In this document: one piece after another, positions 13,050 to 42,161 of the stretch
Position numbering within the stretch: the first letter of the stretch is position 1
Layout: every line of letters starts with the position of its first letter
Translations under genes and position numbers: made by a program
Notes under the pieces: generated by a model
What the model was told of the DNA's origin: nothing
What the model saw: the letters and a program-made list of their open reading frames with translations, nothing else
Databases searched by the model: none
Assembly (NCBI GenBank): GCA_019750255.1
Contig: JAIEOU010000006.1
Location: 52,142-116,141 of the forward strand
Direction of reading: 5' to 3'
Source: Patescibacteria group bacterium
Lineage (GTDB): Bacteria > Patescibacteriota > Minisyncoccia > Phycocordibacterales > UBA918
DNA: 64,000 nucleotides

Positions 13050-13101
13050 GTTACACAACCACCGCACTCCAAATGGAATGAGGGGCTATTTTAAATTATA
13101 A

Positions 13102-17466: not shown

Positions 17467-17675
17467 ATATATGTATTGTACCGTGCTACAAAACGAAACC
17501 ACCCCGTCATGCACAGTGAGCAGAAGCAAGGAGGGCGAAGGACGACTATTGTTTTGCTTATGCAAGCGCTTCAGCAGATTCTACTTTTAAGAGGAGAATA
17601 TGCTGGTAGCGACTTGCCTAGTAAAGTGAGTTATGTGTGACAATAGCAACACATCGGCCGATGCACTAGAAACTC

Positions 17676-21112: not shown

Positions 21113-21150
21113 ACTTCATAGTATAGCGCGACCTTAGTCCTGAACGACCA

Positions 21151-22002
21151 TTACTGCACATCACGCACACACCTAAATCCCACACCAGCAGCAGCAAAAT
21201 CAAGCGCTACCGACATGTTTTGAGCAAACACACCCCCGTCACTGCCGCTTGTGTAAAATCCTCCACGCAACATTCCGCGGACCCCTTCATGCTGGACCCA
21301 GGCATAGTCATCACCAAACGCCGGGACGGGCTGATTGCTGGTCTTTAAGACCACACCACCATCATCGACCAGTTCAACATATCCTGACATCGGAACGTGG
21401 CGCCCTTCAATCATTCCGTCACTCACGGTATCACCCATCCATTCCCATACATTTCCGACAAGATCATGGACCCCGAGTGGCGAAACGCAGTTCGCACTAC
21501 CCGTCAAGGCTGGGCTTGTGGCATCCAGAACACAGGATTCTGTGTCAGCCTGACCGACGGCAACGCGGTACCATTCCTGTGCCGTTGGTAGCCGCTTCCC
21601 CGCTCGAGCGCACAGCTGGGTTGCTTCGGTATAACTGACAAACCGCCACGGTTCTTGCCCGGGCTGACTAACCGGTACACAGGCCGGTGTTTCCACATTG
21701 CTCACAGTGGCACTATCGCCCGTTGCGCTACGGTACGGACAGGTGTGTGCAGGACTGGCTTCATAGCTATCAATACACAGCGCATACGCGCCAAATCGCA
21801 ACAGCACCTCGTGCTCGTTACAAGGCCCACTACTGGTCACTGCTGAACCCATGAGTTTGCCGGAAATGCCGTTAGCCATATCAGATGCCTGAATACCCAC
21901 CGTCGATAGCACGAACGCTCCAAGACCGATGAGTAAACCCTTATGCCAATTCCGTCTTTTGGCGCGTGGTGTCATAGAGCTCACGTGACCTGACGAAATC
22001 AA
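21151..22002 (-). CDS. FGE-sulfatase (SUMF1) fold protein, paralogue 3
   Basis: The sequence carries 'GKRLPTAQEWYRVAVG', 'LVGNVWEWMGDT', 'MLRGGFYTSGSDGG' and 'VGFRCVRDVQ'. An N-terminal signal follows 'MTPRAKRRNWHKGLLIGLGAFVLS', so the start is possibly at the internal Met (21975). Confidence 0.8.
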   Translation of the reverse strand: MISSGHVSSMTPRAKRRNWHKGLLIGLGAFVLSTVGIQASDMANGISGKLMGSAVTSSGPCNEHEVLLRFGAYALCIDSYEASPAHTCPYRSATGDSATVSNVETPACVPVSQPGQEPWRFVSYTEATQLCARAGKRLPTAQEWYRVAVGQADTESCVLDATSPALTGSANCVSPLGVHDLVGNVWEWMGDTVSDGMIEGRHVPMSGYVELVDDGGVVLKTSNQPVPAFGDDYAWVQHEGVRGMLRGGFYTSGSDGGVFAQNMSVALDFAAAGVGFRCVRDVQ

Positions 22003-26266: not shown

Positions 26267-26908
26267 CTACACCACTAGCGTTCCCCCCGGAAGTAGCGAA
26301 GAAAAGGCAATCCCCTTCTCAGCCAGAATTCGCTCCGCAAGGCCATGACTGATAGATAAGCGATCCACCCGTTCGATACCATCATGGACCGGAAAAGCTG
26401 CTGTAGGCGATATCCTAATTGCATAATGTAGCGCGTCGGTCATGCGACACCACGGTCCCCCAACCGGCAGCGCCAATACTCCTACTGGCTTCCCTGGCTC
26501 TGCGTAGCTATCTCCCGGATAGAAGAGTCGCTCGCCTACAAAGTATCCGGTATTCTGTACCTGACCCACATCCTCAAAGATCTCGGCGTGACGGGCATCA
26601 AAGGCTTCAAGTGTCACCCCAGCAACCGTAGCGCTTTCAGTCCCCTCCAGCACCTGCGCTACTATTCCTTCGACTTCCAGCAAACGAGCGACACTCGAAT
26701 TTGAAACCACCACCACCTCGGGAAGACGCGCTATGATGTCTCGAACTGTCGGTACATGAAGATGGTCGGCGTGCTCGTGCGTGATCAAAATAATATCAAA
26801 CTGCTCGGGCAGCTCCACCCCGGCTGTAAACGACCCGGGGTCTGTCACTACCGTTTTGTTTTCAATCTGTATCACCAGGCAGCAGTGGCCGATTTTAGTA
26901 ATAGTCAT
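26267..26908 (-). CDS. Metallo-beta-lactamase fold hydrolase
   Basis: 213-aa ORF with the 'HEHADH' HxHxDH zinc-binding motif and 'GHCCLVI' near the N-terminus. Confidence 0.8.
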   Translation of the reverse strand: MTITKIGHCCLVIQIENKTVVTDPGSFTAGVELPEQFDIILITHEHADHLHVPTVRDIIARLPEVVVVSNSSVARLLEVEGIVAQVLEGTESATVAGVTLEAFDARHAEIFEDVGQVQNTGYFVGERLFYPGDSYAEPGKPVGVLALPVGGPWCRMTDALHYAIRISPTAAFPVHDGIERVDRLSISHGLAERILAEKGIAFSSLLPGGTLVV

Positions 26909-26924
26909 ATTGGTTTAGTATAGC

Positions 26925-26956
26925 AAAAACACCCCCGGATAACCGGGGGTGTTTTT
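26925..26956. terminator. Bidirectional intrinsic terminator (aaaaacacccccgg-ataa-ccgggggtgttttt)
   Basis: Perfect GC-rich 9-bp stem with an A-tract on one side and a T-tract on the other, seen directly in the sequence. Confidence 0.7.
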
Positions 26957-27190
26957 CATTCTTTATTTCTACTTAGCAAGTCGCTACTATTACTTTTTAC
27001 GCTTTTAAAGCTTGAAAGAAATGAAGTGTTTACATAAGAATAAATACCGAGTGACGTAGTCACGAGTATATTTTTCTTATTTGAAAACTTCACTCGTTTC
27101 GAGCTTAAAAGCGAGATAACGAGTGGTAGTTTTCGGGAAGTAAAACATAGTTAAGCAAAACAATGAGCGTAGCGATTATGTTTTGCGTAT

Positions 27191-27224
27191 GTCAGATTTT
27201 CCTCTACCCTGAGGAAAATCTGAC
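27191..27224. terminator. Terminator hairpin downstream of the GH18 gene (gtcagattttcctc-taccct-gaggaaaatctgac)
   Basis: Perfect 14-bp inverted repeat about 20 nt after the stop at 27246. Confidence 0.55.
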
Positions 27225-27245
27225 CGGCTTTCAGCCTCCTTGTTT

Positions 27246-28499
27246 CTACTTAAACAGTGACCAGATTTTTTGATCTTCCTCGCCATCAATCTTGAAGAAG
27301 GCCACACCGCGCAGGCCGTACTTCTCTGCCATTTCAATCCGCCTTTTTGCGGTCGTAGCATCGCTATAGCTTGCGAATCGCACAGACACCTCTTGTCCCG
27401 ACATCGTGGCGTAGGTGAGAGCCTGGGCCGCTGACTCAAAGCCCTTTGGAGTACCCTTTGGTACCGGGAGCGCCCGCAAGAGTTCATACGGTGAACCCTT
27501 AGGGAAGTACGTAATGACGGCCTCACCTCCTACCGTTCGCCCTTCCTCAATATCATACTCCTTCGCCAGTTCAAGTAATCGGGGATGATTCAGGGCTGCG
27601 ACAGACGTGTAGTCGCGGTACCAGTCCGGGGCTACTGTTACATCCCAGGCCCGGCCGTAGGTAGGGATACCAAGAAGCACTTTCTTTTCATCGAAATCCT
27701 TAAGAGCAAGCTCTACCACCTTTTCTACCCACTCATCATCAGCGACGGGGGCATACGGCACGCCCTGACGCTTTTTATTAAGGGTAAGGTCAGCCCGCTG
27801 CTGGTCGTACGTCATGAGCTCAATCCGGTCGCAGTGACGCGCAATTTCATCGTAGTCGTTGGCGTATTTGAGAGGATTTGGCACCGTTACGAAGAGATCT
27901 TCAGGTGGGGTTCGGGCCTCTATGGCACACGTAACGAGCTTTCGCCCCAGTTTTTTGTTGAGCTCTTCTAAAAATTTCGAAAAGTCATCAATGGTGTCGG
28001 TCTTCTTGCCTTCGTAATCGATGTTTACGCCATCATACTTCCCTTTTTCCACCATACTAACAATGGCTTTGATGTGGGCGTTGCGACTCTTTCTGTTACC
28101 AAGGACGTTATCTATCTGCTCCCCGTCAAACCACATCACTGATGGAATTACCTCGACATCATGTTTATCTGCCAGCTTCATGAAGTCTCGCCACTGCTTC
28201 TCGGACATATTGGCCTTATCAACCAACTTTCCGTCTGGTGTTACCTCAAATGAAAACGGATATACTGTATCGAGCTTCTTTATCTGCTTGGTAGCGCTCT
28301 TTAAACCCATCGTGTCTTGCCACCAGGGTATCCAGCCTGAGACCTCAACATCGCTCGTTGCCGCTCGTGCGGAAGGGGTGCCACCAAGGAGTACCAGCCC
28401 TCCCACCATCACCACCGCCATAGCGCACCCTAAAGTTCGCGCCGTATTTACATGTGTCTGCATAATCATAGAGACGGATATCCCAATCGTTTCTTTCAC
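27246..28499 (-). CDS. Secreted glycoside hydrolase family 18 (chitinase-like) protein
   Basis: 417-aa ORF with a signal peptide and the GH18 catalytic motif '[11 protein letters not shown]' (DxxDxDxE). It also has 'GIPTYGRAW'. Confidence 0.75.
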
Positions 28500-28711
28500 G
28501 TTTATTTATTAAAGGTACCGCACAATTCTGTGTCACCAGTTCCTGATAATTACAGGATCAGCCTCAGGTACCGGTATAGGATATGTCGAATATTCAAACA
28601 CAAACAGTGCTCAACTAGACTTTACCACGCAGCGCCTTACTACCACCCCGTCATACCCGGCATTTAGCATCACGCCAACAGCCTCTATAACTGCCGAGTC
28701 ACCATTCCTTA

Positions 28712-29155
28712 TTATGGTGCTTTAGACTTTGACTTGGCCGTCAACCACGAAGATGACTGTACCTTTCCGCCAAAACCGACATTAAAAATCATTTCAATCC
28801 CCAGCTCCTTACACACCACTGCTTCAGGAATATCTTCCACACCTTTACGATCACCACCATTTGCAAACACGTCGGGTCGAACCAGTGCCAGCGTGCGACA
28901 CACCGACCGGTCAGCATCGTTTGGGCCGTGGTCCGTGAGCACCACCTCATCAACAACCCGGAGCGCCCGCAGTACTTCGACGCGTTCTGCCTCGGGCATA
29001 AATACAAAACCCTTCTTAGTCATCAACCAGTCATCGTTATTTAAAATCACCACCAGACGGTCCCCTAAGGCCTTCGCCTCCTCAAACATTCGAATATGTC
29101 CAATATGGACCGGATCAAAACCTCCTGATACCGCCACAGTGCGTATTGTTGACAT
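28712..29155 (-). CDS. Cytidylyltransferase-like nucleotidyltransferase (HIGH-motif family; TagD/RfaE-domain-II/NMNAT-like)
   Basis: 147-aa ORF with 'VSGGFDPVHIGHIRMF', the (H/T)xGH nucleotidyltransferase signature. Confidence 0.7.
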   Translation of the reverse strand: MSTIRTVAVSGGFDPVHIGHIRMFEEAKALGDRLVVILNNDDWLMTKKGFVFMPEAERVEVLRALRVVDEVVLTDHGPNDADRSVCRTLALVRPDVFANGGDRKGVEDIPEAVVCKELGIEMIFNVGFGGKVQSSSWLTAKSKSKAP

Positions 29156-29198
29156 ACACCTATTTAAACTACCAATCCCTCAAAAAAGATACACGCAC

Positions 29199-30383
29199 CT
29201 ACACCACAACCGCTCCTCCAGTCAGATACAAGTGCAGGGTGATAAGGCCCCCCGTAAGAATAAGAAGAGCTAAGCTGTAGACAATTTGCCATGGACGATG
29301 CGAGCGAACAGCGAGCGCGATAGAAAGCAGTAACATCATGGCAATCGCTGTGGTGAGTACGCTATAGACGATTGTCAGGAGCATATTTGGCTGGGTCGCA
29401 ATCCGCGATAAAAATGCGGTCTTGGTAGCGCCTGCCGACACATCGGGAGCGGCTTGCAATAACACGGGAAGGCCCGAAGAAGTAGCCACTGTGCCAGAAT
29501 ACAGCGATACCATGTCCTCCTCTACCTGATATTCCTCTACAGAGAGTGCGGGTTCAGGCGGCAATGGAATGTCCACCGGGGTGCGCGGTGTCGATTCATA
29601 GGCCAACGCCATAGCAGTGGCAGAAGCAGTCTCGGTTACGAGCACCGATGAACTAGCGATGGCATCAACGCTACTACTAGCACTCGTTTCCGCCCCCGAC
29701 ACAACCGCAGCCAATGTGGTTGAGGTGGTTGAGCCGATAGTTACTTCAGGTACCACCACCGGCACATTAGGCACAACCGCTAGTGGAGCGGCCACTTGCG
29801 GTGTTGGACGAGCGATTGGCAAGGCCGGGGTACCAAATAGCTGCACGACAAAAATGGTGTCGTAGCCCTGATAGGTACCTTTAGCGGTACCGACACCGAT
29901 TTCAGTGTAGTTTCCGTTCACGATATTGGCGCGGTGCGTGGGTGACTTCATCCACGCTTCGACGACCTCTCCAGAATCACTGAAGTGAATAGCCAAATTC
30001 TCTCCGGCATGAGCGTAGACATACCCCACCTCATCAAACCAGTCCCACGGCGTCACACCCTTTGGACTATAGTGAGCAAAATAGCCTTCCGCAGCCATGT
30101 GTTCAGCTTTTAGCTGTGCCGCTTCATCGAGCACACTACTACGACGCAGAGCCCCTGCTGCGGCAACTGCCCGCTCTTCGTTTGTGAGTTCAACCACAAT
30201 CGCCGGAAGAATCGTTGATACGAGCCACTGTGATGACTGCCACAAGAGCGCCTGCAAGTTAGCGACCGCGAATGACAAGAGCACCATCCCCAGCATGCCA
30301 AGCATTGCTCCGCGACGCAGCAGCTGCGGCACGTGGTCTGCATCACCAGAAAATAAGAAAGCCGACTGAAGAAAACGCCTCAT
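29199..30383 (-). CDS. CAP/SCP/PR-1-like domain protein with N- and C-terminal TM segments
   Basis: 'TNEERAVAAAGALRRSSVLDEAAQLKAEHMAAEGYFAHYSP' and 'MKSPTHRANIVNGNYTEIGVG' match the CAP (YkwD-like) domain. It also has a Pro/Thr/Ser-rich linker and two C-terminal TM helices. Confidence 0.7.
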   Translation of the reverse strand: MRRFLQSAFLFSGDADHVPQLLRRGAMLGMLGMVLLSFAVANLQALLWQSSQWLVSTILPAIVVELTNEERAVAAAGALRRSSVLDEAAQLKAEHMAAEGYFAHYSPKGVTPWDWFDEVGYVYAHAGENLAIHFSDSGEVVEAWMKSPTHRANIVNGNYTEIGVGTAKGTYQGYDTIFVVQLFGTPALPIARPTPQVAAPLAVVPNVPVVVPEVTIGSTTSTTLAAVVSGAETSASSSVDAIASSSVLVTETASATAMALAYESTPRTPVDIPLPPEPALSVEEYQVEEDMVSLYSGTVATSSGLPVLLQAAPDVSAGATKTAFLSRIATQPNMLLTIVYSVLTTAIAMMLLLSIALAVRSHRPWQIVYSLALLILTGGLITLHLYLTGGAVVV

Positions 30384-30434
30384 ATATTACTAAGTGTAGC
30401 ATGCACCGCAGTGGCAAAACCCTGGGGCTGTTTA

Positions 30435-31058
30435 TTAAGAATCCGCGAGCTTCGCGTAGACGATCAGATTATGAGTATACCGCGCCGCGCCTCGGTCATA
30501 CGTACCCGAGCAGGTAATGAGCCGCAGTCCTGGGTAATCAATATCACCATAGACAGCGCGAGTGGGAAACTCGTCCTGATCCACCCGCGTCAGGTCGGTC
30601 ACTACAAATCGAGCGGTGCTGCCATCAGCGCGATCGACAAGCACCTCATCTCCCACTTCGACTTGCCCTAGGGACCAAAATACAGCGGGGCCGGATTTCG
30701 AATCAACATGGCCAAGAATCACGGCGGGACCAAGTTCGCCGGGGGTTGGTCCAAACTTATACCATCCCACCTCGGTAAATGAATCGGGTACTTCTGAAGT
30801 CTTATCGGGATTAAGCCCCAGACCGCCCTCGAACCCCGCGTCGATGCCTACCTCGGGTATCCGCAGCCGTACCGGCTCGGATTCCGCAAGAGCATACCCT
30901 GGCAAGGATGAGGTCGCGACTACGGCAACCTCTGGCAACACCTCCACACGCGATACCGACCACAGATACACCACAGCAGATAGCCCTATGCCTACACCGG
31001 CAACTACGAGTATTCGCCACCCTGATACATCCTTAAAATATCCCGACATACTTGACAC
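30435..31058 (-). CDS. Sortase family transpeptidase (class E/F-like)
   Basis: 207-aa ORF with an N-terminal TM anchor, the His motif 'VILGHVD' and the active-site Cys motif 'LRLITCSGTYD'. The conserved Arg is in 'RYTHNLIVYAKL'. Confidence 0.75.
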   Translation of the reverse strand: MSSMSGYFKDVSGWRILVVAGVGIGLSAVVYLWSVSRVEVLPEVAVVATSSLPGYALAESEPVRLRIPEVGIDAGFEGGLGLNPDKTSEVPDSFTEVGWYKFGPTPGELGPAVILGHVDSKSGPAVFWSLGQVEVGDEVLVDRADGSTARFVVTDLTRVDQDEFPTRAVYGDIDYPGLRLITCSGTYDRGAARYTHNLIVYAKLADS

Positions 31059-31251
31059 TATCTATAGTACGTTGCAAACAACCTAACGGCAATACCTGTA
31101 GTTAAAAAGGGAAACGTTCTTTCAGATGAAGTGGACCAGTTCGTAATGCTTTAGCCGTTGCGACGGCTTCATGGTAACGGGAGCTTATTACTTGCTCTCC
31201 AGTGATTTATGTTTTAATGTTGACCTCGGCTTTCAAACAGAGGAGTTCCTA

Positions 31252-31440
31252 ATGAACGAAATAGTAAGAGTATATGACGGGCGAAATCCGCCCAAAATCC
31301 GTGGCTTCGAGAAGCAAATGGTCCCGCCAGCTCACACGCAGCCAGGCGGACCGGTCTATCGCCCAATAGAGCATCGCCCTGAAGAAAGCGCGAGCACCAA
31401 GACGGACGAGTCCGAACAGCCCCAGCGGCAGGACGCCTGA
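31252..31440 (+). CDS. Small hypothetical protein (62 aa, basic N-terminus, acidic C-terminus)
   Basis: The ATG at 31252 is preceded by GAGGAG at 7-nt spacing, the only strong RBS in this spacer. A terminator hairpin follows at 31480-31507. The longer ORF-track version (31171) lacks an RBS. Confidence 0.45.
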   Translation: MNEIVRVYDGRNPPKIRGFEKQMVPPAHTQPGGPVYRPIEHRPEESASTKTDESEQPQRQDA

Positions 31441-31479
31441 CCACAACCCTCCACCCCCCATAAAATCCCCCACACAAAA

Positions 31480-31507
31480 AGGCGCACGCGACATACCGCG
31501 TGCGCCT
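31480..31507. terminator. Intrinsic terminator (aggcgcacgcg-acatac-cgcgtgcgcct) with a T-run on the minus-strand side. It serves the DUF11/hydrolase gene and probably the small plus-strand ORF.
   Basis: Perfect 11-bp GC-rich stem. The reverse complement is followed by tttttgtgtggggg. Confidence 0.7.
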
Positions 31508-31525
31508 CTCTACATTTCCTCGTTC

Positions 31526-33004
31526 TTAGCGTAGAGCCGAAAACGGTTCAAAGTAATGTACCGCCATTCCGCCAAAGCCGGTCTTTGGTGAAAAACGGTC
31601 ACGAATCTTTTCTAGTTCAGTCTGGTACCTTACTTTGGGCAATCCGTAGAAGGTAACGTATCCGGGATCAACTTTTCCAAACTCTTGACCCACGATTACC
31701 TTAGTCTTTCGTCCTGGCACCGAAGCCTCATTCACTTCAACCTCAGAAATTTGTATCGTCCCATCGTTTCCTTCAGCAAAGTTTCGGTATGACATCAAGA
31801 TGATTGTACTATCGGCGCGAGTATCAAGTATGCGCATCAGGTGGGTGAAGGTGTGAGTGGTCACTCCTTTATGCGTTACCTTCGGGGTCCAGGCCTGAGC
31901 ACTGTCGTAAAAGTGCGGGATCGTCACGGCAAACCGGAGATTACTGTTCCCGAGACGGGCGTTTGTTTCATCAATCAGTGCCACAAACTCAGTTAAGACT
32001 TGTCCCTTATTGGATTCGTAGGTGGCAAGCAGATATGGTTCAACGTCATACTGCAGTGATCGCAGCGGATTACTGCTGCGCGCCCGGTTATAGGCCACAA
32101 CCATGTCGACAATGGCAAATGCCTTGTACTTCATTGCCGGTTGTGCCCAATCTTTCCAGCCAGCGAGCGCATCAATCGCCACATCATTCTTTTTTGCCTC
32201 AATTACTAATTTCTCGATGGCATCGAAGTAGGCCTTCTTTTTCGCCTCCTTTTGGGCGCCTTCCGGTAAGCTATGGATGAGCAAGTAATCATCGACTGTG
32301 ACATAGAGGGCGTTAAAACCATTATCGCGGGCCGAAGCCATGAGCGAACTGATGTAGGCTGCCGACATGTTAATTGGCGACTCCCACACCCACATGCCAT
32401 ATTCCAGCGTGCTCTTGTCGGGCGAAACGACTACTGGTGGCTGCGGCACCTCTTTTACCGGCTCCCGCGGAACGGGGGTATTTGGGGTCGGCTCTTCTGC
32501 GACCTGATCGCGTGGGACCGGGACAGTGGGCGTAGGTGTGACGGGCGGCGGTACCGTTCCTTCAGCGTCCGTAGCGGTCGTGATGCAGGAATCGCTACCA
32601 TTCTCGGCGGCCGCACAGGCTTCGAGCCCATCAAGCGCACTCTGCGTAGCGTTTAGCTGTACCGTTACCGTGCGCACAGCCTGCGGGGCAAGCGGTCCAA
32701 GATACCAGTAATAGTTCTTGGCGGTAGCGCGAGGAACCACAGATATGACGCGCACTCCCTCAGCGTAGTGATTTGTAATCGAGACATCGTTACAGGCACG
32801 CGAGCCTACATTCTTTACGGTCAATGTGTACGCGACGCGATTATTCACAGAGAGGTCCTTCAGGCTTCGGATAGATGTGAGGGAGAGTGAACAGTCCGGC
32901 ACCTGCGCTAACGCACTTTGACTGACACCTCCCGTTAGTAAGCTGCTTGCTAGCACCATGAGTGCCAGCAGAATTCCATTGGAGATTTTATTTCTTCGTA
33001 ACAT
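31526..33004 (-). CDS. Secreted protein with an N-terminal DUF11/CARDB-like beta-sandwich, a Pro/Thr-rich linker and a C-terminal TIM-barrel glycoside-hydrolase-like domain (family unassigned); paralogue A
   Basis: The signal peptide is 'MLRRNKISNGILLALMVLASSLLTGG'. 'VAYTLTVKNVGSRACNDVSITN' is a DUF11-type repeat. The domain after the linker has 'YGMWVWESPINMS...NGFNALYVTVDDY', 'LQYDVEPYLL' and 'AVTIPHFYD'. It shares ~55% identity with the 36803..38311 product. Confidence 0.65.
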   Translation of the reverse strand: MLRRNKISNGILLALMVLASSLLTGGVSQSALAQVPDCSLSLTSIRSLKDLSVNNRVAYTLTVKNVGSRACNDVSITNHYAEGVRVISVVPRATAKNYYWYLGPLAPQAVRTVTVQLNATQSALDGLEACAAAENGSDSCITTATDAEGTVPPPVTPTPTVPVPRDQVAEEPTPNTPVPREPVKEVPQPPVVVSPDKSTLEYGMWVWESPINMSAAYISSLMASARDNGFNALYVTVDDYLLIHSLPEGAQKEAKKKAYFDAIEKLVIEAKKNDVAIDALAGWKDWAQPAMKYKAFAIVDMVVAYNRARSSNPLRSLQYDVEPYLLATYESNKGQVLTEFVALIDETNARLGNSNLRFAVTIPHFYDSAQAWTPKVTHKGVTTHTFTHLMRILDTRADSTIILMSYRNFAEGNDGTIQISEVEVNEASVPGRKTKVIVGQEFGKVDPGYVTFYGLPKVRYQTELEKIRDRFSPKTGFGGMAVHYFEPFSALR

Positions 33005-33540
33005 TTTTGAACTCTCTAAATTAATCTAAGTAACAATGATGAAGTGTAGACGCACACATGTCGCAACTGAGGTGCGGTTTTCATCACCGCGGAAAAGCCT
33101 ACCACGCCAAAATCGCCCTTCTGGATTTCAGCGACATTACCCCACATTTTCTATTACCTGGGCAAATATCTTTTAATACAACGATATTCTATCTTGATTC
33201 CTTAAAAAAACTCTTAAAAATCGCACCCTTTGACAACGGCCACTCTTCACGCTGTAAGTATCAATTAACTAACACGGCAGTAGTAAAAGGCACAACCTTT
33301 GCCTTATACGGGTGAACTGGTTATCCAAAATGGATACCCTGTTTAGTAGCTTGGGTCATGCACAAGAACTCAAATCGCTCCAAAGCGGGTCGAGTTGGTA
33401 ACGTGTATGGCTCAAATTAGTAAACCTAACCAAACCAATGCGTTGTGAGTACCCGGCAATACTTTTTGTTATTAATCAATATCAACATTGTTAAGATATA
33501 GTCTCTTACTACGTCTAAATAATTGAAAGGGGCAAAAAAG

Positions 33541-33843
33541 ATGTATGTACAAGCGTCATATACCGTTGTTTTCATTGCGCATGGATGTTTAAAGGTTGCT
33601 TTACTCGGACTGACATTAGTAGAAAAAATTATGCCAAGAAAAGTTACTAAGACACGCAAGACTTCTTCTCTTACCCTCCTTTATAGTGGCGTAGCTCTGG
33701 CAACCCTAGCGCTAGCCTACTTTGCAATCACTCGCATTGATACCCTCACCTACAAAATTGTAGTGGTTTTCCTTTCTCTCATTATTTTATCTAATTGCGC
33801 CGCCAAATTGTATGGCCGGCATGTTTTAAACGAGAACATATGA
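33541..33843 (+). CDS. Small two-TM membrane protein translationally coupled to the GT2 synthase (possible PgaD-like accessory subunit)
   Basis: The ATG at 33541 has a GAAAGGGG RBS 8 nt upstream. Two hydrophobic helices are present. The TGA stop overlaps the ATG of the next gene (ATGA at 33840-33843). A paralogue lies at 36599..36817. Confidence 0.55.
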   Translation: MYVQASYTVVFIAHGCLKVALLGLTLVEKIMPRKVTKTRKTSSLTLLYSGVALATLALAYFAITRIDTLTYKIVVVFLSLIILSNCAAKLYGRHVLNENI

Positions 33844-35399
33844 TTCAAAGACTCGTTACTTTTTTCTCACCGGCTGTACGCACAAAATTTTTAGTGTACG
33901 CCTTTCTCTATGTCGTACTTATTGTCATCATCCTCTCGACTTTTTTACTAGAGCCCGAAGAAAACGCTTCGTTTCCGATTCTCCGTATTATTATCATCGG
34001 CTTTGCTTCAATTCTCCTCACCAAGTACTTTTTATACATGGTGCTTAGTCCCTGGAACGAAATTCTTACCCTACACCGCGAGCGGCGACGTCGCCCAGCT
34101 GTCGATGATATGCATTACTATCCAAAAGTAAGCATCCTGGTGCCAGCCTGGAATGAAGAAGTTGGTGTTATAACGACAATAAATGGGCTCTTAAAGAGTA
34201 CCTATAAAAACGTTGAGATACTGGTTATTGATAATGCGTCAAAGGATAATACGGCTCGTAACGTAAAAGCGCTTATCAAGCAGTACAATGCTGAACAACC
34301 GAGCCCTGTTCATGCTCACCATATCGAACTGAAATATTTTTATGAAGGTACGCAAGGTAAAGGTCACGCGCTGAACCACGGCTTGCGCGTTGCTACCGGG
34401 GATATCATTATGTCAATTGATGCTGATTGCTTCGTCGCCCCCGCCACGGTCGGTAATTTTGTTAAGTACTTTAACGACCCAACTGTCATGGCAGCGGTTG
34501 GTAATGTACGTATTGGCAATACCGATACTATTGTTGGTGTGGTCCAGTACCTCGAATTCCTCTTTTCCTTTTACTTTAAAAAAGCCGAATCACTTGTAAA
34601 TACCATCTACATCATTGGTGGCGCGGCTGGTGCCTTCCGCCGCGAAGTATTCGACATCATCGGTCCCTACAGCACCACTAATATTACTGAAGACATTGAA
34701 CTGTCTATGCGTATTCAAGCAGCCGGAATGCGTATCGTCTACGCACACGACGCCCACGTGCTCACCGAAGGAGCCGTCACCTTAAACGGCCTCATGAAAC
34801 AGCGGCTACGCTGGAAGCGTGGTCGCTTTGAGACTTTGGTTGAACACAAGTACATGCTCTTTAGTCGAGAGAAACACCACAACAAACTCCTAACCTGGTT
34901 CCTCCTTCCCCTCACATTACTTGGTGAACTGCAGCTTGGCCTAGAAATAACGTTCCTAGTTTTCCTGTACGTCTTCTCATACCTCACTAATGACTTCTCG
35001 TCATTTTACTCCGGAATTATGGTCGTCAGTTCGATGTTTATAATCCAGGTACTATTTGATAAGCATCGCGAAAAACTTGGTGGCTTTATACTGCTGGCGC
35101 CTATTGGTTGGCTGCTCTTCTATGTGAGTACCCTCGTCGAAACCAATGCCCTCTTTAAAGCACTCTGGGGCTCACTGCGTAAAACCGAACTGACATGGCA
35201 AAAATGGGAGAGACAAGGCGTCCTTACCGGCAAGACTGTTGCGCAAAGCCTCAAAGAAGTAACCCCCCTCTATAACCTAACGAAGTATGCGACAACCACT
35301 AAACCTCTGGGCTGCGGTTGCCGGCATAATGCTAGGACTAAGCGTCGGCCTTACCCTCAGAAGCCCACAGCCACTACCTCCAGCACCCCCACCGACTGA
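33840..35399 (+). CDS. Processive family-2 glycosyltransferase, PgaC/IcaA/NodC-like polysaccharide (poly-GlcNAc-type) synthase; paralogue A
   Basis: GT2 motifs are 'VSILVPAWNEE', 'VIDNASKDNT', 'IMSIDADC', 'TEDIELSMR' and the processive 'QRLRWKRG' (QxxRW). It has N- and C-terminal TM helices. The start is set at the ATGA overlap with the upstream small ORF. Confidence 0.8.
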   Translation: MIQRLVTFFSPAVRTKFLVYAFLYVVLIVIILSTFLLEPEENASFPILRIIIIGFASILLTKYFLYMVLSPWNEILTLHRERRRRPAVDDMHYYPKVSILVPAWNEEVGVITTINGLLKSTYKNVEILVIDNASKDNTARNVKALIKQYNAEQPSPVHAHHIELKYFYEGTQGKGHALNHGLRVATGDIIMSIDADCFVAPATVGNFVKYFNDPTVMAAVGNVRIGNTDTIVGVVQYLEFLFSFYFKKAESLVNTIYIIGGAAGAFRREVFDIIGPYSTTNITEDIELSMRIQAAGMRIVYAHDAHVLTEGAVTLNGLMKQRLRWKRGRFETLVEHKYMLFSREKHHNKLLTWFLLPLTLLGELQLGLEITFLVFLYVFSYLTNDFSSFYSGIMVVSSMFIIQVLFDKHREKLGGFILLAPIGWLLFYVSTLVETNALFKALWGSLRKTELTWQKWERQGVLTGKTVAQSLKEVTPLYNLTKYATTTKPLGCGCRHNARTKRRPYPQKPTATTSSTPTD

Positions 35400-36495
35400 A
35401 GCCTGCCCGATTATAGTCTGCACGGACTCTTCAGCTGGAACCACTTCCAGCGAAATGCTTGAACCTGCTGCCACGAGTAGCGCCGAAGAGCCGAATCCCA
35501 CCACCACCTCACCCCGAGCGATTACTTCCTTACCAACCTACTCCATGCCCCGGTCACCGAACCCAACCTCAGTCACCAGCGCTCCAAGTGGGGTGCAGGT
35601 TATGGCCTGGCTCTACCCAAGCGCACCAGGCTGTGGCGCATCGGCCGAGTACCGTGACGGTCGAACCGTCGACGTCCTAAAACCCGAGTTTTTTACCATC
35701 AATGGTGGTTCGCTCACGCGCATTGATAACACCGGCTGTAATGGGTACAGTCCGGCTTTTGTGGCGGAATTAAAGCGCCACTCGAAAGAGCAATACGTCA
35801 CCATTTCTTCAGCCAGCGCTGGCGACATGGAAACCTTTCTGACCGGTGCACTCGCGGATAATACCGACATCACCACCCTCGTTTCCTTCATTGTTGATAA
35901 TGGCCTGACAGGCATCGAACTAGACTTTGAGGACTTTGGCGGCTGGAACGCTAACGCCTACGCTAACTACAAGACCTTTGTCACCCAATTAGGCACCGCG
36001 CTGCGTGCGCAAAACAAAAAGCTCATGCTCGCCGGTCCGGCGATTGCCGACAGCACTGAACAGGGTTGGTTCTTGTGGCGCTACGAAGATTTTGCCACCC
36101 TGCCCGTCGATCACATGGTCGTAATGGCCTACGACTACCAGTTTGATCATGGTGTCGGCGAACCGGTTGCCCCCCTAGACTGGATAACCAGAGTTACGAA
36201 CTGGGCCGGCGCCCGGTATCCCAAGAACAAACTGACCATCGGTGTCCCATCCTATGGCTATGAAGGCACCGACGGTAGTCGCCCCCTCATCCGTACCTAC
36301 GACCAACTGAAGGCTACTCCTGGGTTTGCCACCGCCCCCCGAGATGCCCGTTCTGGCGAACGCATCTGGAAAAACAGCGGCACCACCTACGTCTACCAGG
36401 ACAGCGAAAGCCTGCGCCTAAAAATCGCCGCCATTAAAGCCACGGGAGTTAACTCAATTTCTATCTGGCATTTAGGTGGCAACCAGTGGTTCTAA
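35287..36495 (+). CDS. Secreted/membrane-anchored glycoside hydrolase family 18-like protein
   Basis: It has an N-terminal TM/signal and a Pro/Ser/Thr-rich linker. The GH18 catalytic motif is 'LTGIELDFEDFGG' (DxxDxDxE variant), with 'GVPSYGYEG' and 'ISIWHLGGNQWF'. The 5' end overlaps the GT2 3' end by ~110 nt, so the start is uncertain. Confidence 0.65.
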   Translation: MRQPLNLWAAVAGIMLGLSVGLTLRSPQPLPPAPPPTEACPIIVCTDSSAGTTSSEMLEPAATSSAEEPNPTTTSPRAITSLPTYSMPRSPNPTSVTSAPSGVQVMAWLYPSAPGCGASAEYRDGRTVDVLKPEFFTINGGSLTRIDNTGCNGYSPAFVAELKRHSKEQYVTISSASAGDMETFLTGALADNTDITTLVSFIVDNGLTGIELDFEDFGGWNANAYANYKTFVTQLGTALRAQNKKLMLAGPAIADSTEQGWFLWRYEDFATLPVDHMVVMAYDYQFDHGVGEPVAPLDWITRVTNWAGARYPKNKLTIGVPSYGYEGTDGSRPLIRTYDQLKATPGFATAPRDARSGERIWKNSGTTYVYQDSESLRLKIAAIKATGVNSISIWHLGGNQWF

Positions 36496-36598
36496 TACTG
36501 CCCGCCATTACTACTATACGCATCAAGTCTGAAGCCCTCAGTCAACTTTCGCACAATCTCCGGTTTGACTTGATGGCTATTTTTGCCATTATGAAGGA

Positions 36599-36817
36599 AT
36601 GACTAAAAGCTCGTTCATTTTTAGGTTCGCCGGACACTGCGTAGTGGCAATTGCACTAGTCTTTACCGTGGTTGCCTCTTTCTACTATTTTGATCGTCCA
36701 ATTTACAAGGTTGTATCGTTATTCATTGGACTCGTGTTCATCTCTAACGCTATCGCTAGAGCTGCACTAATACTGCTCATGTATCAACACAGAGATACCT
36801 CCTTAGCGCAGAAGTAG
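36599..36817 (+). CDS. Small two-TM membrane protein, paralogue of 33541..33843
   Basis: 72-aa ORF with an AAGGA RBS 3 nt upstream. 'YKVVSLFIGLVFISNAIARAAL' aligns to 'YKIVVVFLSLIILSNCAAKLYG' of the other copy. Confidence 0.5.
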   Translation: MTKSSFIFRFAGHCVVAIALVFTVVASFYYFDRPIYKVVSLFIGLVFISNAIARAALILLMYQHRDTSLAQK

Positions 36818-38311
36818 GTAGGGATCATAGTGATGGATTGCCACGCCCCCAAAACCAGACTCAGTTCCAAAAGTGTTATTTATAAGCGCAATGTTACTGG
36901 TAAGTAATGATTTTGTGGTGCCAAAATAGGTAACATAGTCTGGCTCGACATTACCGACCTCTTGAGCAACGATAACTTTAGTAGCGCTCCCGCGAGCCTC
37001 CGTTATTTCAGGCGAGGATAACTGACGCACACCGTTATTTCCCTCAAAAAAATTTCGGTATGACATGACAATTATGGTGCTATTGGTTTTCCGATTTAGA
37101 ATGCGCAGAAGATGCGTGAAGGTATGGGCGGTTTGGTTACCATAGGTAATTGCTGGAGTCCACGCTTGTTCGGAATCATAAAAGTGCGGAATAACCACAC
37201 CAAACCGGAGAGGTGAGGATTCAAGCTTTGCCGTCGACACATCAATGAACTCTACAAAATTCGTGAGCACAGGCGCTTTATTGCTCTCATAGGTTGAGAG
37301 CAAATACGGTTCTACATCAAATTGAAACCCTCGCAGCGGAAGACCTTGTGCCTTGTAGGCGAGCACAAAATCAATCACACCATAACCCTTCTCACGGTGC
37401 GCTGGTTCTGCCCAGTTCGCCGCACCCGCCAGGGCGTCTACCGCAATCCCCTGCGCCTCCGCCTTACGTACAAACGTCGCCAACGCCGCATAGTACTCGG
37501 CCGAGTCGTATGCCATCCAATCGTCTACTGTTATATAAATTACATTGAAGCCCGCCCTCTTGGCATCCGCAATCACCGTATCCATTTTCGTTCCAGAAAG
37601 CGTCACTGCTGAGTGCCAGAGCCATAGTCCATACTCACCAGACACCGTTGTGCTGGCGGGCACTGCCGGGACAACCTCCGGGGATGTAGTCACTACCGGA
37701 CCCACAGGAACAGAAGGAGCCGCCGCTACCGCACACACATCTCCAGAGAGACTGCTCGTGGTCGCACACACATCAACGCCTGGTTCATTTTCGCCATCAT
37801 GTTTAGTTGTCATAGTGTAGGTGCGACTTATTCCCGGATTTAAGCTTCCCACCTTCCAATAGTAATTACTAGCGCTTGGCGGCGGATTACCAGTTGCATA
37901 CTCCTCACCGCTCGGGTAGTACGCTGAAAAAGCAATATCTCGACACACGCTACGGCCAGCATTCTTTAGCGTAATAATATATCGAAACGTAGTGGCAGAA
38001 GTTTTTTCCGCTACCATGCTCGCCGTGAGGCCACACGACTTCGTTCGGCGGACCGCAGCCGTATTATCATTTTCATCAAGGAAGCTTTCAATCACAGAAC
38101 CCCCTTCGGTGTCAGTTGTTGTCGAGGCCGGTATATTTGAACTAAGGATTCCTCCCTGCAACAGAGACAATTTACTATCAATCTCTGCATTAGTCATGGT
38201 TTCGGAACCTTCATTCTGTGTGCTGCTCGAATTAAAAAATACCACCACGAGCAGTATTGTCAGTCCTGCCAAAAGTCCTATCGAGGTGTATAAAACTTTT
38301 TTTGATTTCAT
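36803..38311 (-). CDS. Secreted DUF11/CARDB-like plus TIM-barrel glycoside-hydrolase-like protein; paralogue B
   Basis: 502-aa ORF with a signal peptide. 'FRYIITLKNAGRSVCRDIAFS' is a DUF11-like repeat. The C-terminal domain has 'EYGLWLWHSAVTLS', 'FQFDVEPYLL' and 'VVIPHFYDSEQAW', which parallel paralogue A. Confidence 0.65.
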   Translation of the reverse strand: MKSKKVLYTSIGLLAGLTILLVVVFFNSSSTQNEGSETMTNAEIDSKLSLLQGGILSSNIPASTTTDTEGGSVIESFLDENDNTAAVRRTKSCGLTASMVAEKTSATTFRYIITLKNAGRSVCRDIAFSAYYPSGEEYATGNPPPSASNYYWKVGSLNPGISRTYTMTTKHDGENEPGVDVCATTSSLSGDVCAVAAAPSVPVGPVVTTSPEVVPAVPASTTVSGEYGLWLWHSAVTLSGTKMDTVIADAKRAGFNVIYITVDDWMAYDSAEYYAALATFVRKAEAQGIAVDALAGAANWAEPAHREKGYGVIDFVLAYKAQGLPLRGFQFDVEPYLLSTYESNKAPVLTNFVEFIDVSTAKLESSPLRFGVVIPHFYDSEQAWTPAITYGNQTAHTFTHLLRILNRKTNSTIIVMSYRNFFEGNNGVRQLSSPEITEARGSATKVIVAQEVGNVEPDYVTYFGTTKSLLTSNIALINNTFGTESGFGGVAIHHYDPYLLLR

Positions 38312-38312
38312 G

Positions 38313-39728
38313 TTAAGAGCTTAATTTATTCAAACTTACCCCAACTCCCGTCCGAGTCCACGTTCCCCATGTGGCCTCTCTTCGCCGAACAATATCACCG
38401 AGTGAGCCAATGAGTGCACGGTACTCAACATACGTGCTGATATGGAATAATATCCAACTTATTGGCGCAATCGCGAAAAACGAAACTTTGCGCAAGGTAC
38501 GATCATCATACAACGCATGCACGAAGAATGGCAGGCTTTCCAATATAATCCAGGTAATAAATGGAGTGTAGTCCTGCGTCAGTGTACAGTAAATGTAGAG
38601 CAACAAGATAATCCAAGGCTCAACAAACAATAGTGCACTGGTAAAGTAATTAAGAGGAATCGCAAACCAACACAGAATCTTGTTGTGCTGCTTCTTTCGG
38701 CTAAAAATCATGTTGGTGTGGTTCGCAAACGTCATCAGCCAGCCATATTTCCAACGAATGCGCTGCTTTACTAGACCCTTTAAAGTATTTGCACCCTCGG
38801 TGTAGACCACAGCGTCATCGGCATATACAATATTCATCCCTTCCGACTGTATCTTCACAGACAGGTCAATATCCTCAGTAATGGTAGAAACATCATAGCC
38901 ACCAAATTTTTCAAACACTTCACGACGGAAGGCGCCCGCAGCCCCACCGATAATATAAATAATTCCCATCACTGACTCGGCTTTTTTCCAATAGAATGTA
39001 AATTGGAACTCAAGCTTCTGAAGCATGGTAACGGGATTATCAGGATTCCCTACTTTTACGTTACCAACCGCTGCCATCACGGTCGGATTGTCAAAACGAC
39101 GAACAAAATTTCGTACAGTATTCTTCTCGAGCAGACAGTCAGCATCAATAGACATAATAATGTCACCCGTTGCTCGCTCGAGTGCGTAATTGAGAGCCCG
39201 GCCCTTTCCGCCATTCTCTTTATAAAAATATAATAACTTTTTCCCTCGCGGTAGTTTTACCGATGCGACATAATCACGCATCATCGTATCTGAATTATCT
39301 TTTGATCCGTCATTAACAACAATGAGCTCAATATGAGGGTAATCATTCATCAGTACACTCTTTACGGTTGAAAGCAGACCAACCTCCTCGTTATAGGCAG
39401 GAATCAGGATGGATACCGTATGAGGCTTGGCCGCGTATGTACGGTTGTCTAAATACTTCCACACGTCATACCATGGACCAACGACCATAAATGCAAATCC
39501 CTTAACGTATTTCGTGATGAGGGTTGAAGCAAAAACCGCAATAATTAAAGCTATGAATTTAAGACCCTCATCAACTTCGGGAGATGCCAAAAACATACTA
39601 GTCACGATAAAAATCGTTAGCCCGTACATCGCTCCGTAAATAATGAGGTTTTTTAGCATAACTCCACCGGTTTTTTTGAGAAATACCGACATCAAGCGCC
39701 CTGTATCGAATGTGGCGAAATATAACAT
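38313..39728 (-). CDS. Processive family-2 glycosyltransferase, PgaC/IcaA/NodC-like synthase; paralogue B
   Basis: The motifs are 'VSILIPAYNEE', 'VVNDGSKDNS', 'IMSIDADC', 'TEDIDLSVK' and 'QRIRWKYG'. The stop/start nearly abuts the downstream hydrolase (38311/38313). The true start may be an internal Met (~39692) because a sigma70-like promoter overlaps the annotated ATG. Confidence 0.8.
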   Translation of the reverse strand: MLYFATFDTGRLMSVFLKKTGGVMLKNLIIYGAMYGLTIFIVTSMFLASPEVDEGLKFIALIIAVFASTLITKYVKGFAFMVVGPWYDVWKYLDNRTYAAKPHTVSILIPAYNEEVGLLSTVKSVLMNDYPHIELIVVNDGSKDNSDTMMRDYVASVKLPRGKKLLYFYKENGGKGRALNYALERATGDIIMSIDADCLLEKNTVRNFVRRFDNPTVMAAVGNVKVGNPDNPVTMLQKLEFQFTFYWKKAESVMGIIYIIGGAAGAFRREVFEKFGGYDVSTITEDIDLSVKIQSEGMNIVYADDAVVYTEGANTLKGLVKQRIRWKYGWLMTFANHTNMIFSRKKQHNKILCWFAIPLNYFTSALLFVEPWIILLLYIYCTLTQDYTPFITWIILESLPFFVHALYDDRTLRKVSFFAIAPISWILFHISTYVEYRALIGSLGDIVRRREATWGTWTRTGVGVSLNKLSS

Positions 39729-41657: not shown

Positions 41658-42161
41658 ATGAAAGACCGACTGCTCTCATATTATAAGAACGACTTTTTGC
41701 GCCATAACGTCATCTTTTTTATTGGTTCTATGACGGTGGCGGTACTCAACTATGTCTACCACCCCATCGTCAGCCGCCTCCTTTCAGTTGAGGAATTTGG
41801 TGAACTGCAAGCCTACTTCTCTCTCATTGTACAAATTGGGGTTATTTCCGGCGTGTTTGGGCGCATCATCCTTAACATAAAGACCAATATCTCCGATACC
41901 GATGACGGTCAAATCGTTGTTAGTCACCTGTATTCCCTGTCTACCATTGTGACAGCTCTCATTGCCGCCACTCTCATAATCTTTTCTCCATACATCGGTG
42001 CCTTCTTTAACCTGCCCGGCACCATTGGCCTCCTCCTTACCGGCGCAATCCTCATCATCTCCATTCCCCTTACTTTTGCCAAGTTTGAACTTCAAGCGAT
42101 GTTTCTCCGGAGACCGGGACTCCGGGATTTTGAAGTCGACGCCTGCCACATCCTCATCTGA
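41658..42161 (+). pseudogene. 5' fragment of a Wzx-like polysaccharide-biosynthesis/oligosaccharide flippase (MOP superfamily) gene, truncated after ~150 codons by the tandem repeat at 42105
   Basis: The N-terminus 'MKDRLLSYYKNDFLRHNVIFFIGSMTVAVLNYVYHPIVSRLLSVEEFGELQAYFSL' is typical of ~450-aa flippases. The reading frame runs into repeat sequence at codon ~150 and stops, and no remainder lies downstream. Confidence 0.55.

Follow-up and report, generated by a model that had tools for sequence, protein, structure and literature searches.

Two minimal synthase–glycosidase cassettes, probably for a β-linked surface polysaccharide, in a Patescibacteria genome

A 64,000-nucleotide stretch from the genome of a Patescibacteria group bacterium (contig JAIEOU010000006.1, positions 52,142 to 116,141; hereafter the window) contains a region encoding two membrane-embedded family 2 glycosyltransferases (GT2 A and GT2 B), two small two-helix membrane proteins (small TM A and small TM B), two putative hydrolases in which a DUF11 domain precedes a TIM-barrel-like domain (hydrolases A and B), and one GH18-like glycosidase (Table 1). 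Patescibacteria are a huge and almost uncultured group, many members of which are attached to other cells, and the chemistry of their envelopes and attachment is largely unknown. All seven open reading frames (ORFs) that an earlier note on the same DNA had listed for this region were recovered at their coordinates in the ORF list of the window (7/7).

Table 1 Features of the cassette region, with positions in the window
Feature	Position	Strand	Description
Hydrolase A	31526..33004	-	DUF11/CLIPPER and TIM barrel; second copy, divergent from cassette A
Small TM A	33631..33843	+	Two-helix membrane protein; ~70 aa from 33631
GT2 A	33840..35399	+	Paralogous synthase, GH18-associated clade, cassette type 2
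GH18-like glycosidase	35287..36495	+	N-terminal hydrophobic anchor; Pfam GH18; downstream of GT2 A
Small TM B	36599..36817	+	72 aa, two hydrophobic helices
Hydrolase B	36803..38311	-	N-terminal anchor or signal, DUF11/CLIPPER and (β/α)8 barrel
GT2 B	38313..39728	-	Membrane-embedded processive-type GT2, cassette type 1; probable start 39692
Indel segment, ~5.5 kb	31122..36635	.	Carries hydrolase A, small TM A, GT2 A and the GH18-like gene

These genes fall into two cassettes of different type, both of which recur in Patescibacteria. The type 1 cassette, the module B of the earlier note, comprises a small two-helix membrane protein, a PgaC/IcaA-like GT2 and a DUF11(CLIPPER)/TIM-barrel protein, and the type 2 cassette, the core of its module A, comprises a small two-helix membrane protein, a GT2 and a GH18-like protein. 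Hydrolase A is an extra DUF11/TIM-barrel gene that is transcribed divergently and lies outside both cassettes. The two like modules described earlier do exist as gene sets, and each GT2 has its small partner and its dedicated extracytoplasmic enzyme as had been proposed, but the modules are not like-for-like duplicates, the partner of GT2 A being the GH18-like protein and that of GT2 B the DUF11/TIM-barrel protein.

The two hydrolases share 40% identity over 435 aa (E 1e-110) and the two GT2s 46% over 450 aa (E 2e-134), a sequence similarity that places the paralogy claimed earlier far above chance; the two small proteins share only 27% over 51 aa (E 3e-5). In locus L002 of the closest available relative, whose hydrolase is 71% identical, blastn aligned positions 8315-11693 with window positions 40002-36635 and positions 12284-12987 with window positions 31122-30428, so that 590 bp in L002 stand in the place of the 5.5-kb indel segment. 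An origin of the two modules by recent tandem duplication was ruled out on three grounds: the identity of the copies is only 40–46%, their GT2s belong to different clades, and in the comparison with L002 module A is an indel.

The gene junctions are tight. The stop codon of small TM A and the ATG of GT2 A overlap in an ATGA at 33840-33843, and a single nucleotide separates the stop codon of GT2 B from the ATG of hydrolase B, both of which indicate translational coupling. Small TM B runs convergently to hydrolase B, whose 3′ end it overlaps by 15 nt. Several gene starts can be read in more than one way. The ORF of small TM A is open from 33523, with possible starts at 33523 (TTG), 33541 (ATG, the choice of the earlier note) or 33631 (ATG), and its homology to other members is confined to the last ~70 aa; GT2 A can also be read from 33795 (33795/33840-35399). 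For GT2 B, the NCBI annotation gives 459 aa where the ORF has 471, and a sigma-70 promoter-like site with 11 of 12 consensus positions and an extended −10 TG lies at 39747-39719 on the reverse strand, within the 5′ end of the 471-aa ORF, which together make the start at 39692 more likely. At its C-terminus GT2 A has a non-homologous tail of ~55 aa, which the GH18-like ORF overlaps by 113 nt; the start of the GH18-like gene at 35287 is nevertheless supported, because homologues span 98–100% of its 402-aa ORF.

Both GT2s matched Glycos_transf_2 in Pfam (97 and 114 bits), and there were weak matches to Chitin_synth_2. Their top NCBIfam model was PgaC_IcaA (TIGR03937), with 173.1 bits for GT2 A and 179.2 bits for GT2 B against an equivalog cutoff of 422.3; other scores were 104–110 bits for the XrtG-associated glycosyltransferase, 58–79 bits for CelA and 56–77 bits for NodC (NodC cutoff 550). 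By these profiles PgaC/IcaA is the closest curated family, yet the two enzymes are not PgaC/IcaA equivalogs, and a ‘PgaC’ label would be an over-call because 173–179 bits stand against a cutoff of 422. Their earlier description as PgaC/NodC-like holds for the nearest family and the processive type, but not for equivalogy with PgaC. GT2 B is 32% identical to E. coli PgaC over the catalytic domain. In a neighbour-joining tree, calculated without bootstraps, a long branch sets E. coli PgaC apart, GT2 A groups with GH18-associated GT2s (L089, L090, L091 and L114) and GT2 B with TIM-barrel-associated GT2s.

The motifs typical of processive synthases (D, DxD, TED and QxxRW) are present in both window copies, the last as QRIRW and QRLRW, in agreement with the earlier note, and in an alignment of 43 homologues the positions D140/D144, D195-A-D197, T284-E-D286 and Q322-R-x-R-W326 (GT2 B numbering) are invariant. 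Hydropathy places transmembrane segments at both ends of the GT2s. An AlphaFold2 (AF2) model of GT2 B, built from the 43-homologue alignment with a predicted local distance difference test score (pLDDT) of 89, surrounds the GT-A domain with two long N-terminal helices and three C-terminal ones; helices 21-83 and 350-447 flank the domain. The best match of this model in a Foldseek search of the PDB was the Chlorella-virus hyaluronan synthase (CvHAS), with a TM-score of 0.60–0.63 over ~435 columns, and further matches were BcsA of E. coli and Rhodobacter, Xenopus hyaluronan synthase 1 (XlHAS1), yeast Chs1 and oomycete chitin synthases. Motifs and model together support the reading of the two GT2s as membrane-embedded synthases of the processive type, which would add sugars processively as their structural relatives do.

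Hydropathy also gives each of the small proteins two hydrophobic helices, and neither matched Pfam. They share with small ORFs at the same position elsewhere the motif Y-x-(V/F)-V-x-x-F-x-x-L-(I/V)-(F/I)-(I/V/L)-S-N-x-x-A; these comprise the ORFs that precede the GT2 in other loci and a convergent 53-aa ORF in L002 and L011. PgaD and IcaD are small integral membrane proteins needed for synthase activity. Homology of the window proteins to PgaD was ruled out, as no similarity to E. coli PgaD was found, and PgaD and IcaD are themselves not homologous to each other (PMC7112194). By analogy, the small protein of ~55–75 aa is probably an accessory subunit of the synthase, an analogue and not a homologue of PgaD/IcaD.

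The hydrolases carry DUF11 (PF01345) at their N-terminus, with 32.2 bits in hydrolase A and 27.1 bits in hydrolase B (Pfam cutoff 24.6), as do 37 of the 58 barrel-family members aligned; in hydrolase B the DUF11/CLIPPER β-sandwich occupies ~aa 105-187 and the barrel ~aa 225-502. DUF11/CLIPPER is a cell-surface, CnaA-like stalk domain (PMC12617251). Each hydrolase has one N-terminal hydrophobic segment by hydropathy, which in hydrolase A looks like a cleavable signal peptide (…SQSALA|QV), and four cysteines in the DUF11 region are conserved in the 58-homologue alignment. Hydrophobic N-terminal segments, cysteines and stalk together predict that the hydrolases are extracytoplasmic.

The C-terminal ~280 aa of both hydrolases matched nothing in searches of Pfam, NCBIfam or PDB sequences. 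An AF2 model from the 58 homologues, with a pLDDT of 96.5, folds the domain into a canonical (β/α)8 barrel of eight β/α units, a plausibly glycosidase-type fold with conserved carboxylates, and the unclassified TIM-barrel-like domain of the earlier note is borne out in this respect. Numbered within the barrel, the invariant residues are W16 and W18 on β1, Y45 on β2, G82 and W86 after β3, D118-x-E120-P-Y at the end of β4, P161 at the end of β5, M202-x-Y204-x-N206 at the end of β6, E237 at the end of β7 and G275 on β8. In the model these residues lie at or just past the C-terminal strand ends, the catalytic face of TIM barrels, and their invariance extends to the most distant members (22–25% identity, including a CBM30-bearing group). 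The sequences ‘DVEPYLL’ and ‘IPHFYD’ highlighted earlier occur in both window proteins, and hydrolase A keeps all catalytic-face residues (DVEPY, IPHFYD, MSYRN, GQE and FGGMAVH). In hydrolase B, D332, E334, Y418 and E451 are the candidate catalytic residues.

An exhaustive search with a hidden Markov model found 3,614 cluster representatives (50% identity) of the barrel family at E<=1e-3 and 861 at E<=1e-30. In some members the barrel is fused to a GT2, to CBM30/CBM11, or to DUF11 plus PG_binding_1. A single 735-aa gene (P0313, L008 981..3188) joins a GT2 (with the motif variant QRVFGW), transmembrane helices and a barrel, which reads as a Rosetta-stone fusion of two cassette functions; such fusions support a carbohydrate role of the barrel and its coupling to the synthase. 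Another member (P0286, 636 aa) has two tandem barrel copies, the first more degenerate.

Comparison with known glycosidase families suggests a remote relationship of the barrel to GH18, outside the family as modelled by Pfam. Aligned by hhalign, the barrel profile (229 members) and the profile of the GH18-like partner (121 homologues of the window protein) gave a probability of 62.5% (E 7.3e-5) over 137–217 columns, the 217 at low stringency, with GiQfDIEpY in register with GIELDFEDF (DxE) and IMaYRN with VMAYDYQ (MxY); the reversed profile and the GT2 profile, used as controls, gave 0.6% and 0.3%. Against the two GH18s of the window as single sequences the barrel profile was not significant, and none of the 58 barrel members matched Pfam GH18 even at E<=1. 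The earlier claim of a different hydrolase family accordingly stands at family level, but is qualified by this GH18-like alignment (E 7e-5). Foldseek returned Cwp19, GH20 and GH84 as the best PDB matches of the barrel. The only solved structure that the barrel profile reached among PDB sequences (E 2.7e-9) was 10yv (275 aa), which, at low identity, has in common with the C-terminal two-thirds of the barrel the motifs DVEPW, (T/S)F…H, GLE and F-x-G-x-A-V. Its label, ‘Putative GH97 from Cellulomonas fimi’, is the depositor’s name and was rejected as a guide, as no publication was found and 0/58 members matched Pfam GH97; a relationship to the PgaB C-domain (GH153) was likewise ruled out (hhalign probability 0.5%). 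Five barrel members weakly matched the GH140 Apiosidase-like model PF13204. Set against the 4/7 motif of GH-A enzymes, the barrel has the invariant E120-P121 on β4, E237 on β7 and Y204 on β6, and the Asn of N-E-P is replaced by Val (D-V-E-P). From the fold, the conservation of the catalytic face, the 10yv and GH140 matches and the in-register GH18 alignment, the barrel is plausibly a glycosidase-type domain, which would be hydrolytic and may be a far-diverged relative of GH18.

The protein encoded downstream of GT2 A is a GH18 member by Pfam (PF00704, 64.7 bits against a cutoff of 29.6), with one N-terminal hydrophobic segment by hydropathy; its closest solved relatives are 5jh8, 4q6t, YdhD, SleL and YaaH. 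Its β4 motif T-G-I-E-L-D-F-E departs from the canonical DxxDxDxE in that the first Asp is Thr and the second Glu, with the last Asp and the catalytic Glu kept, a pattern that is family-wide in the profile consensus, and its MAYDYQ retains MxYD. Homologues of ~400 aa, often auto-named ‘YaaH’, are widespread in Patescibacteria. Such homologues lie directly 3′ of a small ORF and a GT2 in eight loci (L089, L090, L091, L097, L098, L101, L111 and L114). The earlier note had treated the GH18 as an addition to module A; by gene order and by the neighbour-joining tree, in which GT2 A clusters with GT2s that have a conserved downstream GH18-like partner, it is the cognate partner of GT2 A.

How widely the type 1 cassette is conserved was surveyed in the 80 best-matching species-representative loci for the barrel family, nearly all of which are Patescibacteria as labelled (three labels are uninformative or name another group). 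The cassette GT2 lies immediately upstream in 22 of the ~29 long-form, DUF11-bearing loci, and 20 of these 22 also have a small-ORF match, either directly before the GT2 or on the downstream side in convergent orientation, the latter in L011, L002 and module B of the window. Of the seven long-form loci that have no GT2, one lies at the edge of its contig, and three are additional copies in genomes that also possess a full cassette. The order small ORF, GT2, DUF11/TIM-barrel gene was found again in unrelated neighbourhoods (L003/L004 and L007). Among these top-matching species genomes, then, the cassette system is almost confined to Patescibacteria. One contig labelled uncultured Gammaproteobacteria (L021, CAZXUX010000003.1) carries a Patescibacteria-type GT2 and DUF11/TIM-barrel cassette, which may reflect mis-binning or horizontal transfer. 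A literature search for such a cassette in Patescibacteria found nothing specific.

In a GT2-centred metagenome sample, related GT2s on apparently non-patescibacterial contigs precede other glycosidase-like genes, which makes the theme of a synthase with a swappable glycosidase a general one. On two such contigs, a GT2 is followed by a fusion of GH26 and CE4 (Polysacc_deac_1) (L130 3061..4971) or flanked by a GH17-like protein (L110 5404..7053). The GH26–CE4 fusion recalls PgaB in its two-domain logic, though its hydrolase is a different one. A CE4 gene also lies ~2 kb from one cassette related to those of the window (L090).

Taking these observations together, we consider it probable that the region comprises two minimal synthase-dependent surface-polysaccharide cassettes of a bacterium of Parcubacteria/Paceibacteria type, for a β-linked and probably N-acetylglucosamine (GlcNAc)-based polymer that is trimmed by a dedicated glycosidase. 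The GT2 would polymerise a UDP-sugar at the cytoplasmic face and extrude the β-linked chain, as it grows, via a transmembrane channel of its own, in the manner of the PgaC/IcaA, BcsA, hyaluronan synthase and chitin synthase class, with the translationally coupled two-helix protein serving as an accessory subunit. An anchored or secreted extracytoplasmic glycosidase would then cut, trim or free the nascent polymer. This enzyme would come in two flavours, a YaaH/YdhD-like GH18 in cassette A and a CLIPPER-stalked barrel in cassette B and in hydrolase A, the stalk holding the glycosidase away from the membrane. BcsZ, CcsZ, PslG, PelA and the PgaB C-domain are the polymer-processing enzymes of known synthase-dependent systems.

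The product is most likely a β-linked GlcNAc-based homopolymer, chitin-like or like poly-N-acetylglucosamine (PNAG), as judged from the sequences, because both partners are of GH18 type and UDP-GlcNAc is required in a peptidoglycan-making cell, being the nucleotide sugar that any such minimal cell must have. The precedent for GH18 enzymes is β-1,4 rather than β-1,6 substrates, and the GH18-type partner argues, if anything, against a β-1,6-linked PNAG product. A bolder extension, which we offer tentatively and doubt more than we believe, is that the barrel is the founding member of a new glycoside-hydrolase family, which would have diverged far from its sister GH18 and use D-x-E substrate-assisted chemistry, and that it forms with the GH18-type cassette a Patescibacteria-wide system for a chitin-like β-GlcNAc surface polymer, a ‘chitin coat’ for envelope structure or host attachment, with the small two-helix protein as a new class of co-subunit.

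Several observations weigh against a GlcNAc polymer trimmed by its own glycosidase. On the side of the synthase, the PgaC/IcaA cutoff is missed by a wide margin and those of NodC and CelA are not reached either. The best Foldseek matches are processive synthases, so that the GT2s do not cluster with non-processive ones, the outcome that the earlier note had named as refuting. PcManGT, however, is both the best PDB sequence match and a structural match; it is a minimal GT2 of the cellulose-synthase-like kind and is not known to synthesise a polymer. On the side of the glycosidases, the TM-scores of the barrel to any solved structure are only 0.5–0.6 and ketose 3-epimerases, which are not glycosidases, score equally, its similarity to GH18 is only moderate, and spore peptidoglycan hydrolases are among the solved relatives of the GH18 subgroup. 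The identity of the polymer is something we infer entirely, and the CBM30/CBM11 modules on distant barrel homologues, which bind β-glucan, point away from GlcNAc for those members. Nor is the coupling of the two activities universal. The short form of the barrel protein (~390 aa, >50 loci) never adjoins a cassette GT2, so that the barrel is not obligatorily synthase-coupled, and no consistent carbohydrate genes were found beside short-form barrels, whose neighbours are FAD-oxidase-like, SWIB-like and housekeeping genes. In the GT2-centred metagenome sample, either partner was present for only ~10 of 42 GT2s with downstream room; many of the partnerless GT2s look non-patescibacterial.

Four other explanations were weighed. 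The cassettes might be genuine PNAG systems, orthologous to pgaCD/icaAD, in which new hydrolases replace PgaB and the polymer stays fully acetylated. The lead of PgaC_IcaA over the next family (173–179 against 104–110 bits) and the presence of a small two-helix partner, as in pga and ica, fit such an origin, but the score is less than half of the 422.3 cutoff, the branch to E. coli PgaC is long, the proteins have no similarity to PgaD or to the PgaB C-domain, and neither PgaB nor PgaA was detected anywhere in the window. Characterised PNAG hydrolases belong to GH20 (dispersin B) and GH153 (PgaB), we know of no GH18 that cleaves β-1,6-GlcNAc, and overall we regard PNAG orthology as unlikely. 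If the polymer were instead a β-glucan, whether cellulose-like, mixed-linkage or β-1,3, the barrel could be a GH-A-like retaining β-glucanase with E334 as acid/base and E451 as nucleophile. This would explain the invariant Glu at the end of β4, followed by Pro in an NEP-like way, its counterpart at the end of β7 and the invariant Tyr on β6; it would suit the CBM30/CBM11 modules, the five weak PF13204 matches, the presence of BcsA among the structural matches of the GT2 and the related GT2s from outside the Candidate Phyla Radiation that precede GH26- or GH17-like proteins. The Asn of NEP is Val here, however, and the invariant Asp two positions before the Glu makes the pattern a DxE; in the sister GT2 clade the partner is instead a GH18, whose mechanism requires a 2-acetamido substrate, and the CelA and BcsA models score far lower than PgaC_IcaA, which leaves the β-glucan in our estimate quite unlikely.

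Two further explanations concern the downstream enzymes and leave the synthase as it is. These enzymes may act on peptidoglycan, of the cell itself or of a host, and not on the GT2 product, the linkage then reflecting a shared envelope function; they might open the wall locally for polymer or surface structures, or attack a host envelope. YdhD, SleL and YaaH, the relatives of the GH18-like protein, are spore peptidoglycan hydrolases, the best Foldseek match of the barrel is Cwp19, a C. difficile peptidoglycan hydrolase, one barrel-family member carries PG_binding_1, wall enzymes (LD-carboxypeptidase, M23 peptidase and sortase) abound nearby, and the short-form barrels occur without any GT2. 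Translational coupling, the split of the GT2 tree by partner and the GT2–TIM-barrel fusion are nevertheless better explained by action on the product of the synthase, and the CBM30/CBM11 fusions indicate soluble or polymeric glycan substrates, so we give action on peptidoglycan a rather low probability. The barrel/CLIPPER protein may, lastly, not be a hydrolase at all, but a transglycosylase, a lectin-like anchor that retains the nascent chain at the wall or an inactive binding module. The stalk-plus-anchor architecture is typical of surface adhesins, the PG_binding_1 fusion fits an anchor, and GH18-like and GH16-like folds include transglycosylases and lectins. The strict invariance of D-x-E and of the Glu down to 22–25% identity favours catalysis over mere binding, although the same argument does not tell hydrolysis from transglycosylation; we consider a non-hydrolytic protein very unlikely. 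A GlcNAc-based surface polymer processed by its own glycosidase thus remains the reading we prefer.

Other features of the window were noted around the cassettes. A block at 26267..31058 on the reverse strand, with genes for Lactamase_B, GH18 (27246-28499), cytidylyltransferase-like, CAP/SCP and sortase proteins, shows synteny with L002 and, in part, with L089, L090 and L091, and has the look of a cell-surface neighbourhood that has been conserved; in those loci the GT2 cassettes are repeatedly found beside surface proteins of the sortase, CAP and DUF642 kinds. Farther to the left, three tandem paralogous ORFs (19482..22002, reverse strand; 274, 274 and 283 aa) each encode an FGE-sulfatase (SUMF1-like) domain, and a cohesin-domain protein (13162..14706, reverse strand) lies near a protein with dockerin type I and Ig-like domains (15556..17565, reverse strand), a pair that may form a cohesin–dockerin surface assembly. 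The left end is occupied by a giant ORF of at least 4,361 codons (3..13085, reverse strand), rich in T, S, A and G and running off the window, which is probably a giant surface protein; an apparently ORF-free stretch of 8.8 kb at 3400-12200 was rejected as an anomaly, being part of this gene. To the right of the cassettes lies a 167-aa ORF (41658..42161, forward strand) whose match to the Polysacc_synt flippase model is limited to the first ~110 model positions; it is followed by overlapping short ORFs and may be a truncated or frameshifted flippase gene. Two very large tandem ORFs (54492..61346, 2,284 aa, and 61359..63941, 860 aa, both on the reverse strand) lie near the right end.

As a widely conserved three-gene unit, the cassette would be a concrete candidate for a major surface glycan of Patescibacteria, and automated ‘PgaC / PNAG synthase’ labels on its GT2 genes are over-calls. 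The barrel family is both large and unannotated, and lends itself to experiments. Once assigned, its activity would give CAZy a further family and possibly yield a tool enzyme for polymer degradation; dispersin B and PgaB became such tools against PNAG biofilms.

Among characterised systems, pgaABCD and icaADBC offer the closest likeness in organisation: a membrane GT2 with D, DxD, TED and QxxRW motifs, a small two-helix partner and a co-operonic extracytoplasmic enzyme. In pga and ica, a small two-helix partner stands beside the synthase and a dedicated extracytoplasmic polymer-processing enzyme is encoded in the same operon (PMC7112194). The cassettes described here differ in that the small partner, which shows no similarity to PgaD, is encoded ahead of the synthase or convergently to it, in that a CE4 deacetylase, a PgaA porin and a GH153 domain are missing, and in that the processing enzyme is either GH18-like or a CLIPPER-stalked barrel that has no Pfam or NCBIfam model. 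None of the 29 window ORFs scanned matched Polysacc_deac_1, a tblastn search of the window with PgaB gave only noise, and homologues of PgaA and PgaD were not detected in the window; the lack of a PgaB-like deacetylase, noted earlier, was thereby confirmed for the window.

The BcsA–BcsZ and CcsA–CcsZ cellulose systems similarly combine a processive GT2 with an obligatory extracytoplasmic endoglycanase that acts on the product of its own synthase, and BcsA is a structural match of GT2 B; the clostridial CcsA–CcsZ pair is reportedly a monoderm cellulose system that is equally minimal. Here, however, no PilZ domain, cyclic di-GMP module or BcsB was detected and the CelA/BcsA models score poorly, and the glycosidases of BcsZ/CcsZ-type cellulose operons belong to GH8 and GH5. 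With Chs1, NodC and the hyaluronan synthases the cassettes share the structural match (class I hyaluronan synthases and Chs1 are among the best over ~435 columns) and, in GH18, a family that degrades β-1,4-GlcNAc polymers, but the 56–77 bits for NodC lie far from its cutoff of 550, and we know of no precedent for a dedicated GH18 that is co-operonic with a bacterial chitin, chito-oligosaccharide or hyaluronan synthase.

As to the processing enzymes, the GH18-like protein of the window is a bona fide Pfam member of the YaaH/YdhD/SleL subgroup with D-x-E and MxYD, and the barrel aligns with it in register, but fails Pfam GH18, has MxYRN for MxYD and adds an invariant Glu on β7. The 10yv protein differs from the barrel proteins described here in that it lacks DUF11 and is not known to be linked to a GT2. 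The underlying principle is thus familiar, the logic of synthase-dependent exopolysaccharides being known, whereas the small partner and a glycosidase family that has no Pfam or NCBIfam model are new.

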